Shown piece after piece: positions 9,737 through 11,687 of a stretch of DNA of 15,363 bases. Position numbers and translations under genes: made by a program. Below the pieces are notes generated by a model. The model saw nothing but the letters and a program-made list of their open reading frames with translations, did not search any database and was not told the origin of the DNA. This DNA comes from a virus. Numbering within the stretch: the first letter of the stretch is position 1; each line of letters opens with the position of its first letter. The DNA lies in the UHGV virus genome UHGV-0120107; one strand, 5' to 3'.

Positions 9737-9921
9737 ACGCCACAATTCAAACGATACCAGAACTGCTTATACAGGCACGAGGCAATCAGACCGAAGTGGC
9801 GAGGATGCTTTCCTGCGCAAGAGGAACAGTGCTCAAGTACAACCGAGACAGAAAAGGCGAGCGTCACGTAATAGTTAACGGCGTCCTGATGGTCAAACAG
9901 GGCAAGAGGGGAAGACGATGA
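9733..9921 (+). CDS. ninH: NinH-like protein (62 aa)
   Basis: ...TIPELLIQARGNQTEVARMLSCARGTVLKYNRD... resembles lambda NinH (...YGNQTEVARRLKCSRGTVRKY...) as I recall it. Sits immediately upstream of Q. Confidence 0.7.
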   Translation: MNATIQTIPELLIQARGNQTEVARMLSCARGTVLKYNRDRKGERHVIVNGVLMVKQGKRGRR

Positions 9922-10541
9922 GACTCGAAAGCGTAGCTAAATTTCATTCGCCAAAAAGCCCGATGATGAGCGACTCACCACGGGCCACGGCTTCTGACTC
10001 TCTTTCCGGTACTGATGTGATGGCTGCTATGGGGATGGCGCAATCACAAGCCGGATTCGGCATGGCTGCATTCTGTGGTAAGCACGAACTCAGCCAGAAC
10101 GACAAACAAAAGGCTATCAACTATCTGATGCAATTTGCACACAAGGTATCGGGGAAATACCGTGGTGTGGCAAAGCTCGAAGGAAATACTAAGGCAAAGG
10201 TACTGCAAGTGCTCGCAACATTCGCTTATGCGGATTATTGCCGTAGTGCCGCGACGCCGGGCGCAAGATGCAGAGATTGCCACGGTACAGGCCGTGCGGT
10301 TGATATAGCAAAAACAGAGCAGTGGGGGAGAGTTGTCGAGAAAGAGTGCGGAAGATGCAAAGGCGTCGGCTATTCAAGAATGCCAGCAAGCGCCGCATAT
10401 CGCGCTGTAACGATGCTAATCCCAAACCTTACCCAACCCACCTGGTCACGCACTGTTAAGCCGCTGTATGACGCTCTGGTGGTGCAATGCCACAAGGAAG
10501 AGTCAATCGCAGACAACATTTTGAATGCGGTTACACGTTAG
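9918..10541 (+). CDS. Q: Q late-gene antiterminator, lambda type (207 aa)
   Basis: Full-length match to lambda Q as I recall it (MRLESVAKFHSPKSPMMSDSPRATASDSLSG...), followed by a lambda-type PR'/qut region. Confidence 0.9.
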   Translation: MRLESVAKFHSPKSPMMSDSPRATASDSLSGTDVMAAMGMAQSQAGFGMAAFCGKHELSQNDKQKAINYLMQFAHKVSGKYRGVAKLEGNTKAKVLQVLATFAYADYCRSAATPGARCRDCHGTGRAVDIAKTEQWGRVVEKECGRCKGVGYSRMPASAAYRAVTMLIPNLTQPTWSRTVKPLYDALVVQCHKEESIADNILNAVTR

Positions 10542-10583
10542 CAGCATAATTGCCACGGATGGCAACATATTAACGGCATGATA

Positions 10584-10612
10584 TTGACTTTTTGAATAAA
10601 GTTGGGTAAATT
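10584..10612 (+). promoter_or_regulatory. PR' late promoter with qut region
   Basis: -35 TTGACT (10584..10589), 17-bp spacer, -10 TAAATT (10607..10612), 43 bp downstream of Q. Sequence closely resembles lambda PR'. Confidence 0.7.
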
Positions 10613-10619
10613 TGACCCA

Positions 10620-10811
10620 ACGATGGGTTAATTCGCTCGTTGTGGTAGTGAGATGAAAAGAGGCGGCGCTTACTACCGATTCCGCCTAGTTGGTCACTTC
10701 GACGTATCGTCTGGAACTCCAACCATCGCAGGCTGAGAGGTCTGCAAAATGCAATCCCGAAACAGTTCGCAGGTAATAGTTAGAGCCTGCACAACGGTTT
10801 CGGGATTTTTT
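10620..10811 (+). ncRNA. 6S-like late leader RNA ending at the tR' terminator
   Basis: About 190 nt from the predicted PR' start to a strong terminator: 10-bp stem ATCCCGAAAC/GTTTCGGGAT (10754..10763 and 10797..10806) followed by TTTTTT. Confidence 0.6.
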
Positions 10812-11086
10812 ATATCTGCACAACAGGTAAGAGCATTAAAGAACTGGCAAAGAGCTTAACGGTCTGCGAAAGCATTTCTTAGTGGCACAACTGGCCGGTA
10901 CAACTGAGTGCTCTTTCCGGTGTGGTGAATGCGCAGGCTGATGCGCGCAGGAGAGCTTCGGAAGAACAAGGTGCCTGTATACAAGCCGGAGATCAGCGCC
11001 GGCCACCACAGCCAAATCCACCCAGAGCAAAACCGTTGTTCATCCTTACCATTCCCTCAGTATTTTGGACTACAACCCTCAGCCCA

Positions 11087-11200
11087 TTTTTTAAAGCGTA
11101 CTTCCACCAAGAACTAGACCTAACCAACTCATTGCTGACACTCTGTGGATACGGTTGTCTAGTGCGCTTTAAAAAAGAAAACCCAGCATCAATGGCTGGG
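11087..11200. repeat. Nested inverted repeats plus a minus-strand terminator-like hairpin between tR' and S
   Basis: 12-bp perfect inverted repeat TTTTTTAAAGCG (11087..11098) / CGCTTTAAAAAA (11165..11176) encloses a 7-bp inner repeat ACTAGAC (11113..11119) / GTCTAGT (11157..11163). Adjacent hairpin CCCAGC-N7-GCTGGG (11182..11200) is followed on the minus strand by TTTTCTTTTTT. Confidence 0.4.
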
Positions 11201-11363
11201 CTTCGTGATATGAGCGGCATGTATTGTTGGCGCAATCCACGCCTGATTTGCTCATGAATGCGGTCACGAACAAACCCGTTACAAATCAACCGTAACCCGG
11301 ATTTGTTCAAGCGACCATATCCATAATTCCTAATTTGAACAGATCCCCTTCTGGGGGTAAGAC

Positions 11364-11687
11364 ATGAAGATGCCAGAAAAACATGACCTGTTAGCTGCCA
11401 TTCTCGCGGCAAAGGAACAAGGCATCGGGGCAATCCTTGCGTTTGCAATGGCGTACCTTCGCGGCAGATATAATGGCGGTGCGTTTACAAAAACAGTAAT
11501 CGACGCAACGATGTGCGCCATTATCGCCTGGTTCATTCGTGACCTTCTCGACTTCGCCGGACTAAGTAGCAACCTCGCTTATATAACGAGCGTGTTCATC
11601 GGCTACATCGGTACTGACTCGATAGGTTCGCTTATCAAACGCTTCGCTGCTAAAAAAGCCGGAGTAGAAGATGGTGGAAATCAATAA
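11364..11687 (+). CDS. S: Holin S, lambda type (107 aa, dual-start motif MKM)
   Basis: Near-identical to lambda S as I recall it ([64 protein letters not shown]...). GGGGG RBS. Confidence 0.9.

Follow-up and report, generated by a model that had tools for sequence, protein, structure and literature searches.

Domains shaped like transfer RNA (tRNA) occur in several other RNAs, including transfer-messenger RNA (tmRNA), the bacterial Y RNA YrlA and the tRNA-like structures of plant viruses, and an engineered 'tRNA scaffold' serves for recombinant RNA expression. Here we describe a tRNA-shaped RNA element, and the structured elements around it, in the interval between gene Q and the holin gene S of the virus genome UHGV-0120107. 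The whole stretch of DNA analysed, called the window below, is 15,363 nucleotides long, and the interval occupies its positions 10,812 to 11,363.

Non-coding RNAs have been described from the same part of other lambdoid prophages. AgvB and AsxR are anti-sRNAs from convergent small RNA (sRNA) pairs that lie 3' of the promoter PR' in prophages of enterohaemorrhagic Escherichia coli (EHEC) (Tree et al. 2014, PMC4104026), and the StxS and 6S RNAs arise from PR' itself (PMC7547250). According to a recent preprint, PasA and PasC adjoin the holin gene (Zhu, Shabalina and Storz 2026). The boundary sequences of this region go back to the recombination-linker concept of Clark et al. 2001 on phage HK620, as cited in PMC3029335. 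GOLLD, ROOL and other phage-associated structured RNAs of unknown function have also been reported (Weinberg et al. 2017, PMC5737381).

The Q-to-S interval is among the most studied phage DNA, and its annotation still goes no further than promoter, terminators and 'boundary sequences'. The late region of the window is of the lambda/HK620 type, with Q, PR', a 6S-like leader, the terminator tR', 550 non-coding bases and then the lysis genes. Comparison with related phages shows that the interval encodes several covarying RNA structures, and that one family of these spans phages of E. coli, Pseudomonas, Xanthomonas, Burkholderia and Rhizobium. We propose that the late (lysis) transcript, which depends on Q, has in this interval a heavily folded leader that is not translated and that consists of portable modules working as plus-strand RNA, a reading to which we give a probability of roughly 0.5. 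The fold z-scores of the single window sequence are modest (-1.4 to -1.9 against shuffles), so the case for structure is built on comparison of related sequences and does not depend on folding energy.

A tRNA-shaped RNA with a near-invariant core

The tRNA-shaped element lies at 10921..11010 on the plus strand. Its closing helix is formed by TGTGGTG (10921-10927) and CACCACA (11004-11010), and an AAT linker (10928-10930) leads into a D-like hairpin, GCGC-AGGCTGAT-GCGC (10931-10946, plus strand), which in the RNA is GCGC-AGGCUGAU-GCGC after AAU. The T-like hairpin GCCGG-AGATCAGCG-CCGGC (10985-11003, plus strand) has the family form GCCGG-AGAUCAGCR-CCGGC. GCUGA in the D-like loop pairs with UCAGC in the T-like loop. 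When the element is folded alone its minimum-free-energy structure is a cloverleaf, with a 7-bp acceptor, a 4-bp D stem and a 5-bp T stem. The first-pass annotation of this DNA, made from the sequence alone, does not mention the element, which is in our analysis the most unusual feature of the interval.

The pattern CTCTTTCCGNTGTGNTGAAT matched at least 120 stretches in IMG/VR, and the matches listed were parsed to 57 unique complete copies. All have the same layout of closing helix, AAT, D-like arm, slot and T-like arm, around a hypervariable middle of 2-162 nt; at least 35 unrelated types of content are found in the slot. The copies were aligned over the core only, with the variable part swapped for a fixed linker. 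The parser demanded pairing in the closing helix and the T-like stem, and made no pairing demand on the D-like stem or the loop contact. In the resulting alignment 98.9% of cells are paired and two-sided changes occur in 9 of 21 pairs, a result equalled by none of 500 shuffles. The D-like stem varies as GCGT/ACGT, ACGC/GCGT and GCAC/GTGC, and the T-like stem as GCAGG/CCTGC, ACCGG/CCGGT and GACGG/CCGTC. The loop-loop pairing is itself compensated in one locus (L047), from GCUGA:UCAGC to GUCGA:UCGAC.

An unbiased test of the closing helix used genome matches to the D-like arm, in which the T-like arm was found by sequence only. Among the matches listed, 66 copies have a T-like arm, and in 57 of these the nucleotides before AAT pair at 7 of 7 positions with those after the arm, compared with 8.5% in a shuffled-pairing control. 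The 66 copies hold 33 distinct closing-helix sequences, for example CGGTCTG/CAGACCG, GAGGGTG/CACCCTC and ATGGATG/CATCCAT. In Pseudomonas copies the helix runs on for 10-17 bp. NCC follows the closing helix in roughly half of the IMG/VR copies, as estimated by eye from the tails.

The element is not recognised as a tRNA. ARAGORN reports no tRNA genes in the window, and the Rfam tRNA model has no match at E<=10 in 10540-11400. Where a tRNA has an anticodon arm with a 5-bp stem and a 7-nt loop, the slot of the window holds a 5-bp stem, a 22-nt loop and 6 nt more, and the loops AGATCAGCR and AGGCTGAT lack the T-loop (GTTCRANYC) and D-loop GG signatures. The cloverleaf topology at a tRNA insertion position could nevertheless be what is left of a decaying tRNA pseudogene from a tRNA cassette, since tRNA genes adjoin the element in 15 loci and its module is common with a tRNA-like Agtrevirus gene. 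Drift would be expected of such a relic, yet between Enterobacteria and Rhizobium the core hardly varies, and compensation preserves its stems. Together with the missing loop signatures and the blindness of ARAGORN and the Rfam model, this makes a pseudogene highly improbable.

An invariant core with freely varying peripheral helices, tolerated insertions and a tertiary loop-loop contact is also what a catalytic RNA might look like, in this case a new class of self-cleaving or self-processing ribozyme that cuts the leader. A hammerhead in the adjacent stem A of one locus shows that self-cleavage is used in this leader. The core bears no likeness to any known ribozyme model, and we regard catalysis as very unlikely.

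Two further RNAs resemble the element wholly or in part. The core-genome sRNA RydB of E. coli K-12 (L351 714-781, minus strand) contains a hairpin, GCCGGAGAUAAGCGCCGG, that is identical at 17 of 18 positions to the T-like arm (window 10985-11002) and has CCCC...GGGG flanks. The likeness may reflect a relic or convergence; the Rfam rydB model gives a partial match at E=0.47. In the Sakai prophage Sp5, between stx2B and the convergent sRNAs EcOnc27/AsxR (L125 3955-4070), a variant of the same topology consists of a closing helix GCATGGTG/CACCATGC, AAT, a hairpin and a T-like hairpin CCGGG-AGGCA-CCCGG against the 3' strand, and it lies ~45 nt before the plus-strand terminator.

Variable modules

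The variable module of the window copy (10947..10984, plus strand) is GCAGG-AGAGCTTCGGAAGAACAAGGTG-CCTGT plus ATACAA, or GCAGG-AGAGCUUCGGAAGAACAAGGUG-CCUGU in RNA form. By BLAST, 10907-11010 has a 99% identical counterpart in unrelated virulent Klebsiella siphophages, immediately before tRNA genes, and 10945-10978 is identical to part of a 'tRNA-Pro' in Agtrevirus phages. In the latter the module takes the place of the anticodon arm in a tRNA body that is otherwise normal and has an ACCA end; ARAGORN calls this gene 'tRNA-???'. The occurrence of one module in both a tRNA body and the kissing-loop core indicates that it is portable between the two frames.

In five loci (L032, L037, L041, L089, L094) the slot module clearly mimics helix 11 of 16S rRNA (AGCTAGATGGTGAGGTAATGGCTCACCATGGCGACGA), and its differences from the E. 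coli 16S sequence include compensatory ones. The similarity is supported by blastn (E=2e-5), by the Rfam small subunit (SSU) rRNA model (36.7 bits) and by comparison with shuffles (z=8-13). Mimicry of 23S rRNA by the window module was considered and rejected; the 21-nt similarity has z=2.9, 1 of 60 shuffles is as good, and it is not significant over 109 modules. Mimicry of rRNA is thus significant only for the helix-11 module type.

A module of ~141 nt (GAGTGTAAGACCTG...GAGTAAGC...GAAACCTTCGCCCCGGTGAAACTCCGGTGTC...) is present in the slots of L034, L143, L194, L212, L241 and L243, and recurs in enterobacterial, Pseudomonas and alphaproteobacterial copies, a comparison made by eye only. Its identity as a cobalamin riboswitch was rejected, as no Rfam match was obtained.

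Distribution and genomic context

The D-like arm alone (AATGCGCAGGCTGATGCGC) was searched in one genome per species and gave at least 120 matches, where ~4 would be expected by chance by our estimate. About 20 of the 120 listed are false positives, a coincidence inside a conserved protein gene of Xanthomonadales and Burkholderiales (L131, L145, L149, L162, L166, L201, L208, L209, L215, L217, L219, L227, L242 and similar loci), and most of the remainder carry the whole core. The hosts include Enterobacterales, Pseudomonas, Xanthomonas, Stenotrophomonas, Burkholderia, Pandoraea, Massilia, Thauera, Rhizobium and others. Besides lambdoid prophages, virulent phages of Klebsiella carry the core, and so do prophages of Pseudomonas, Xanthomonas, Burkholderiales and Rhizobium. 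The tRNA-shaped RNA is accordingly a family of Proteobacteria phages and prophages, with a near-invariant kissing-loop core, a freely covarying closing helix and a slot at the anticodon-arm position.

The element is always on the strand of its flanking genes, and in 15 of 124 loci it is on the same strand as nearby tRNA genes. In enterobacterial phages it is mostly found between Q and the lysis genes. Elsewhere it lies near genes for CI-type repressors, RecT, NinG or lysozyme, and in Pseudomonas and Xanthomonas prophages it is in early regions. No protein cluster is common to more than 6 of 63 loci, and this absence of a shared partner protein gene is compatible with reliance on conserved host machinery. 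In other phages tRNA genes or a hammerhead ribozyme sit in the corresponding late leader.

Rfam 15 contains no family that matches the core or the M4-M5 domains described below, either in the window (at gathering thresholds and at E<=10) or in 37 related loci (at E<=0.5-1). Matches found incidentally in the searched loci are to tRNAs, IsrJ, Proteo-phage-1, int-alpA and hammerhead. IsrJ (59.7 bits; L112 142-220) lies directly upstream of two tRNA genes and the element, and Proteo-phage-1 RNA (L130 2325-2405 and L236 723-799; 60.4 and 43 bits) lies a few kb from the element, at ~1.9 kb and on the same strand in L130. In the literature open to full-text search, no description was found of tRNA-like RNAs in lambdoid late leaders, of the core strings or of processing of the lambda late leader. 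The structured RNA family appears to be undescribed and to have a very wide distribution. In Halomonas olivaria (L203, AP019416.1) the D-like arm 19-mer occurs within a CRISPR spacer (repeat GTTCCCCGCAGGCGCGGGGATGAACCG), from which it follows that a Halomonas CRISPR system sampled DNA with the tRNA-shaped element.

The inverted repeat and the conserved leader domain M4

The 12-bp perfect inverted repeat reported by the first-pass annotation (11087-11098/11165-11176) is present, and it extends to 16 nt at 94% with one G-T pair (11087-11102/11161-11176), the arms being 58 nt apart. These arms are the basal helix of a conserved leader domain, M4 (11087..11176, plus strand), in which an inner CCA/UGG-type helix (11114-11116/11146-11148) closes a variable loop. 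The inner inverted repeat that had also been reported is seen in the fold as CTAGAC/GTCTAG; it is lineage-specific, and close relatives are without it.

Homologues of M4 and of the hairpin M5 that follows it were gathered from IMG/VR with two patterns, one for the hairpin and its 3' flank and, separately, one for the 5' flank. Each gave at least 120 stretches, and the matches listed contained 89 and 101 unique sequences, respectively. The consensus begins with a tR'-type terminator, CACGACNTTTCTG, a basal helix such as AAAGCGYCCTA ... TAGGRCGYTTT and an A-rich linker, and continues with the hairpin CCCAGC..GCTGGG, CTTCGTGA, more hairpins and the holin gene. For 24 diverse homologues RNAalifold predicts the inner CCA/UGG helix and a basal helix equivalent to window 11093-11100/11163-11170, which is lengthened in the window lineage to the full repeat. 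The basal helix has two-sided changes in 7 of 8 pairs, and its arms vary as AAAGCACTCTA/TAGAGTGCT, TTAGCGCTTATC/GATAAGCGCTAA and AAAATGCCCT/AGGGCATTTT. Read on the plus strand the alignment has ~22 G-U cells, as opposed to only 2 A-C or C-A cells. As the wobbles fit the plus strand only, the molecule that folds into M4 is plus-strand RNA, namely the late transcript. A long-range helix CACGA/UCGUG around M4-M5 gives no covariation signal, because both of its strands are invariant in the homologues, and the window is without the 5' strand.

In many lambdoid phages, for example L262, the M4-M5 block comes straight after tR' with no cassette between. The inverted repeat is the basal helix of the conserved domain M4, which is followed by the conserved hairpin M5, and in a large lambdoid group the two constitute the core of the lysis-cassette 5' leader. 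The earlier idea that repeat and hairpin are the remnant of a small element does not agree with this, since 11087-11208 belongs to the core leader that in such phages adjoins tR'. A discrete insertion does exist, and it is the segment upstream, 10813-11086, rather than 11087-11208.

A more specific form of that idea would make the segment within the repeat the remnant of a miniature transposable element, with terminal inverted repeats of 16 nt that are 58 nt apart. Of 5,426 complete E. coli genomes, 108 have the interval, E. coli HS and O26:H11 strains among them, and always as a single copy at a constant position. There is no target-site duplication at 11087/11176, no relative was seen in which the flanks are kept and 11087-11176 is absent, and the arms covary in the homologues as an RNA helix. 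A transposable element is barely credible for this segment, and we rejected it on the single locus per genome and the covariation of the M4 arms. Lambda retains only a remnant of M4 and M5 (..CCTTTTACACATGACCTTCGTGAAAGCGGGTGGCAGGAG..), so both are dispensable for lambda.

The hairpin M5 and a possible antisense RNA

M5 (11171..11208, assigned to neither strand) consists of an A-run, the hairpin CCCAGC-ATCAATG-GCTGGG (11182-11200) and the near-invariant CTTCGTGA (11201-11208). The GC hairpin and its minus-strand T-run had been noted before, and they are confirmed as a terminator-like site at 11204..11178 on the minus strand with the tail CTTTTTTAAA. In its minus-strand reading M5 is a canonical intrinsic terminator, with a GC-rich hairpin and a U-run, and it scores as one in the window and in L262. 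The plus-strand A-run is kept across the 89 unique homologues among the matches listed, and its invariable presence is a reason for the resemblance of M5 to a minus-strand terminator. The stem has compensated variants, CCCGC/GCGGG and CCAGC/GCTGG. As diverged phages preserve the long M4 stem and this hairpin alike by compensation, the two are not chance features. In some phages a gene-sized insert splits M4 from the A-run and M5, which shows that M4 and M5 are separable units. In other phages the first lysis gene has its Shine-Dalgarno sequence (SD) and ATG 5 nt away from M5.

An RNA transcribed antisense might end at the M5 hairpin, which would then be the terminator of a short minus-strand sRNA that converges on the late transcript, in the manner of AgvB and AsxR, primary transcripts of 51-60 nt from promoters of their own. 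Besides the canonical terminator with its conserved U-run, the minus strand presents a variable segment followed by ~45 conserved nt that include the terminator, and Tree et al. (PMC4104026) describe the same layout and convergent sRNA pairs at this position. Terminators are back to back in Sakai Sp5, and tQ, the terminator upstream of M4, is convergent with M5. However, a consensus scan, which is weak evidence, found no sigma-70-like minus-strand promoter in the window or in L262, and the candidate -10 hexamers are poor and unconserved. The Rfam models of AgvB (RF02702), AsxR (RF02703), STnc100 and Esr41 have no match at E<=10 on either strand. The M4 helix next to M5 belongs to the plus strand, and for a hairpin 5 nt from a lysis-gene SD a plus-strand role is equally plausible. 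The first-pass suggestion of an antisense RNA terminator therefore survives in the terminator-like appearance of the hairpin and gains no support from the promoter scan or the sRNA models, and we consider an antisense RNA unlikely on balance. M5 may additionally stop antisense transcription.

M6 and the 5' untranslated region of S

M6 (11210..11255, plus strand) is a predicted helix ATGAGC/GCTCAT around the hairpin GGCG-CAATCCA-CGCC. Its lambda counterpart is GGCAGGAGG...CCTCCTGCC, and homologues hold a hairpin of differing sequence at this position. In the immediate 5' untranslated region (UTR) of S (11268..11363, plus strand), GGATTTGTTC at 11298-11308 can pair alternatively with GAACAAACCCG at 11268-11278 or with TTGAACAGATCC at 11335-11346. 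A further hairpin, CCCC-TTCT-GGGG (11345-11356, plus strand), stands just before the S start codon at 11364. The three alternative-pairing blocks (11268-11278, 11298-11308 and 11335-11346) are conserved in lambda and lie by the S ribosome-binding site (RBS), and the alternative pairing of GGATTTGTTC may be a switch that affects S translation.

M4-M5 and these helices could together form a sensor of the riboswitch or thermosensor type, with an expression platform that tunes holin translation and the timing of lysis. A conserved multi-helix domain with invariant single-stranded segments does lie directly upstream of mutually exclusive helices by the S RBS, and M5 abuts the SD in some phages. Yet no ligand or family match was found, lambda works without M4-M5, and a gene between M4 and M5 in some phages speaks against a single compact aptamer. 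We hold a sensor to be distinctly improbable.

In phage CUS-3 the homologous 241 bp, which cover the homologue of 11247-11363, are annotated 'bsq3; boundary sequence', and the S-upstream and post-Q blocks of this phage bear the annotation 'bsq3/bsq4; boundary sequence'. The conserved blocks might accordingly be DNA linkers, providing homology for the shuffling of modules among lambdoid phages and having no RNA function. Recombination at linkers would give the conserved flanks around unrelated centres that are observed, and the block is indeed a conserved non-coding one at a junction of exchangeable modules. DNA homology does not predict compensatory changes, G-T pairs of one strand or 33 self-complementary closing helices, and such compensatory and strand-specific wobble changes indicate selection on RNA pairing. 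The core is not confined to lambdoid module junctions either, being present in virulent phages of Klebsiella and, in Pseudomonas and Xanthomonas prophages, in early regions. A function as linkers only is improbable, but the linker and RNA readings are compatible and can both hold, in that conserved RNA stems would double as recombination sites.

The inserted cassette and its surroundings

Q is at 9918-10541. From the end of Q to 10835 the window is near-identical to lambda, with PR', the 6S-like leader and tR'; the first-pass annotation had stated this for the first 270 bp after Q. tR' (10753..10812, plus strand), the intrinsic terminator of the PR' leader, is an inverted repeat 10753-10767/10793-10807 followed by a T-run; it is lambda-identical and forms the left boundary of the structures described here. 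Phages HK620 and HK633 share 99.6% identity with the window from 10819 to 11363. The 550-base interval is followed by the lysis genes S (11364-11687), R and Rz, in this order. E. coli genomes have no annotation across the interval, and the HK620 record has only 'late transcription terminator; tQ'.

Relative to leaders of the L262 type, 10813-11086 is an extra segment, an added cassette that comprises stem A, the tRNA-shaped RNA and a terminator of its own, tQ. Stem A (10819..10924, plus strand) has the 5' arm CACAACAGGTAAGAGCA (10819-10835), the 3' arm TGCTCTTTCCGGTGTG (10909-10924) and a variable apical part inside; its last 4 nt (TGTG) double as the first 4 nt of the closing helix of the tRNA-shaped element. 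The arms are also found in lambda, in HK620 (two copies) and in Klebsiella phage ZCKP8, around unrelated centres, and four loci (L140, L154, L224, L176) have compensated arm variants. tQ (11067..11092, plus strand), a hairpin with T6 that HK620 annotates as 'late transcription terminator; tQ', ends the cassette and is equivalent in position to tR' of L262. In the window it is weakened by a G-to-A change in the stem, and two loci (L038, L039) have other GC hairpins with a T-run at this position.

The apical part of stem A on IMG/VR contig 3300011242_000058 (L026 384-430) contains a complete type I hammerhead (CUGAAGAG...GAAAC...GUC), ~130 nt upstream of the tRNA-shaped element of that contig. 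It scores 28.7 bits with RF00163, below the gathering score of 34 bits, and E=4.7e-5 in a local search. HK620 (L001 1255-1340, 1395-1500) has a second stem-A-like helix and a further conserved segment, GAAATGTATCTGGC.GTAGC.TAAC.GCTAAACACCAG..., that is common with ZCKP8 (L002 1800-1915); its hairpin is apparently compensated (CAAGG/CCTTG versus TGAGG/CCTCA), and the window is without this segment. Compared with window 10819-11010, lambda (L004, 44.8-45.0 kb) has stem A and a different three-way element in place of the kissing-loop core, TTGTGCTG-AAT-...CCGG-AAGCAGAA-CCGG...GGCG-TCAT-CGCC...CAGCACAA. The closing helix of the lambda element differs from that of the window by one compensated G-C to C-G change, and IMG/VR holds at least 30 near-identical copies.

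The interval contains no credible open reading frame (ORF), in agreement with the first-pass annotation. A 111-aa plus-strand ORF (10922-11257) crosses a 2-nt indel and whole-module replacements among close relatives, and HK620, at 99.6% identity, has no gene annotated there. This ORF and one of 15 codons after the hairpin are unconserved, with stops and 2-nt indels in relatives, and a coding reading was rejected. In several phage records, such as MZ440881 and MF612073, a short CDS for a 'hypothetical protein' is placed across the tRNA-shaped element or stem A, probably as an artefact of ORF callers. The view of the Q-to-S interval as structured and non-coding, at the position where lambdoid phages insert morons and tRNA genes, is upheld.

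Proposed function

All conserved pairings are on the plus strand and downstream of tR', which suggests that the RNAs are made upon read-through of tR'. The cassette would be transcribed only when RNA polymerase passes this terminator, by Q antitermination or by leaking through. The tRNA-shaped core would then serve as an independently folding handle for processing, maturation and stability. The 7-bp on 5-bp stacking as in tRNA, NCC in about half of the copies, the swap with a tRNA body and the presence of tRNA genes or a hammerhead in such leaders suggest excision by RNase P and 3' trimming. Host tRNA-maturation enzymes may thus release the core, RNase P on the 5' side and an exonuclease or RNase E on the 3' side. 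The product would be a stable small RNA with the variable module as effector, for example a decoy or sponge. For M4-M5 and the alternative helices downstream, control over how stable the holin mRNA is and how well it is translated is the more likely role. The likeliest role of the element would be that of a stable carrier RNA, processed from antiterminated transcripts and upstream of a lysis 5' UTR that is itself structured.

It can be tentatively suggested that the core is a natural RNA carrier throughout Proteobacteria phages, one invariant kissing-loop frame that folds, processes and stabilises swappable effector RNAs, a possibility that we consider rather doubtful. The effectors would include the 16S helix-11 mimic, the ~141-nt domain and the 32-nt window module, would be expressed only on read-through or antitermination, and would be the RNA equivalent of protein 'morons', acting on host machinery or defences. 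In a stronger variant the invariant core would itself have ribozyme activity of a new kind, or a conserved host factor would bind it as its ligand.

Several observations weigh against the proposal of a leader built from processed and portable RNAs. Each functional step is deduced from sequence. The closing helix of Pseudomonas copies, which continues 10-17 bp past the 7 bp, is unlike the 7-bp acceptor expected of an RNase P substrate, the T-like loop has 9 nt and is without the tRNA T-loop sequence, and NCCA is not conserved. Flanking terminators are only modestly enriched, in 9 of 62 loci downstream and 7 of 62 upstream compared with 12 of 256 control windows; the enrichment is about threefold, and the notion that the element is always flanked by terminators was rejected. 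Lambda is without M4/M5 and has a different three-way element, so no module is essential for the lambdoid lytic cycle. A simple carrier role does not account for two hairpins that are near-invariant even in their stems, and this constancy hints at a specific partner or chemistry.

The question raised by these findings is what role a tRNA-shaped RNA with a swappable arm has in lytic growth. As a carrier of decoy or regulatory RNAs, if it is one, the frame would extend the biology of phage accessory ('moron') genes to RNA and offer a naturally optimised scaffold for RNA expression in bacteria. For annotation, the inverted repeat should be read as an RNA helix of the lysis-gene leader and not as a transposon scar, in a region where ORF callers sometimes place 'hypothetical proteins'.

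Comparison with known systems

AgvB/AsxR and PasA/PasC are, like the elements described here, non-coding RNAs of the interval from PR' to the lysis genes in lambdoid prophages, and the convergent terminators are similar. The minus-strand reading of M5, with its variable 5' part and conserved 3' part, recalls AgvB/AsxR in particular. The window differs from these in being unmatched by the Rfam models of AgvB and AsxR and in having no promoter recognised by a consensus scan, and its conserved structures fold on the plus strand. The RNAs known from this interval in other phages, StxS and 6S among them, differ in sequence from the elements described here.

The boundary sequences of HK620 and CUS-3 are the same DNA blocks, bsq3 being the S-upstream block, and tQ is annotated in HK620. 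They had been read as recombination linkers plus a terminator, and as far as searchable records and texts show RNA covariation is not in that description.

GOLLD and ROOL are also structured RNAs borne by phages, often near tRNA genes and probably co-transcribed with them. They are entirely unlike the present family in size, fold and host range, and their models are unmatched.

Phage tRNA genes occupy the same position between Q and S, for example ileZ-argN-argO of Stx phages, downstream of tR' and on the same strand. With tRNA itself the element shares four arms, a 7-bp closing helix stacked on a 5-bp T-like stem, a loop-loop 'elbow', NCC(A) in about half of the copies and occasional tRNA neighbours. 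It has no anticodon loop, the slot being filled by 2-162 nt of unrelated sequence. Its D-like and T-like loops are invariant in their own way and make five Watson-Crick pairs, as opposed to the G18/G19-psi55/C56 contacts of tRNA. The T-like loop has 9 nt, the closing helix is far longer in some taxa, and tRNA detectors are blind to it.

The tRNA-like domains of other RNAs and the tRNA scaffold resemble the element in design, as each is a tRNA-shaped frame with a foreign RNA domain at the anticodon arm, and the likeness makes it plausible that host tRNA enzymes process and stabilise the element. In sequence the element is not similar to them; it has neither G3:U70 nor a canonical T-loop, and is unmatched by the Rfam models of tmRNA or other RNAs. 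The tRNA-shaped core is an independent, phage-borne family.

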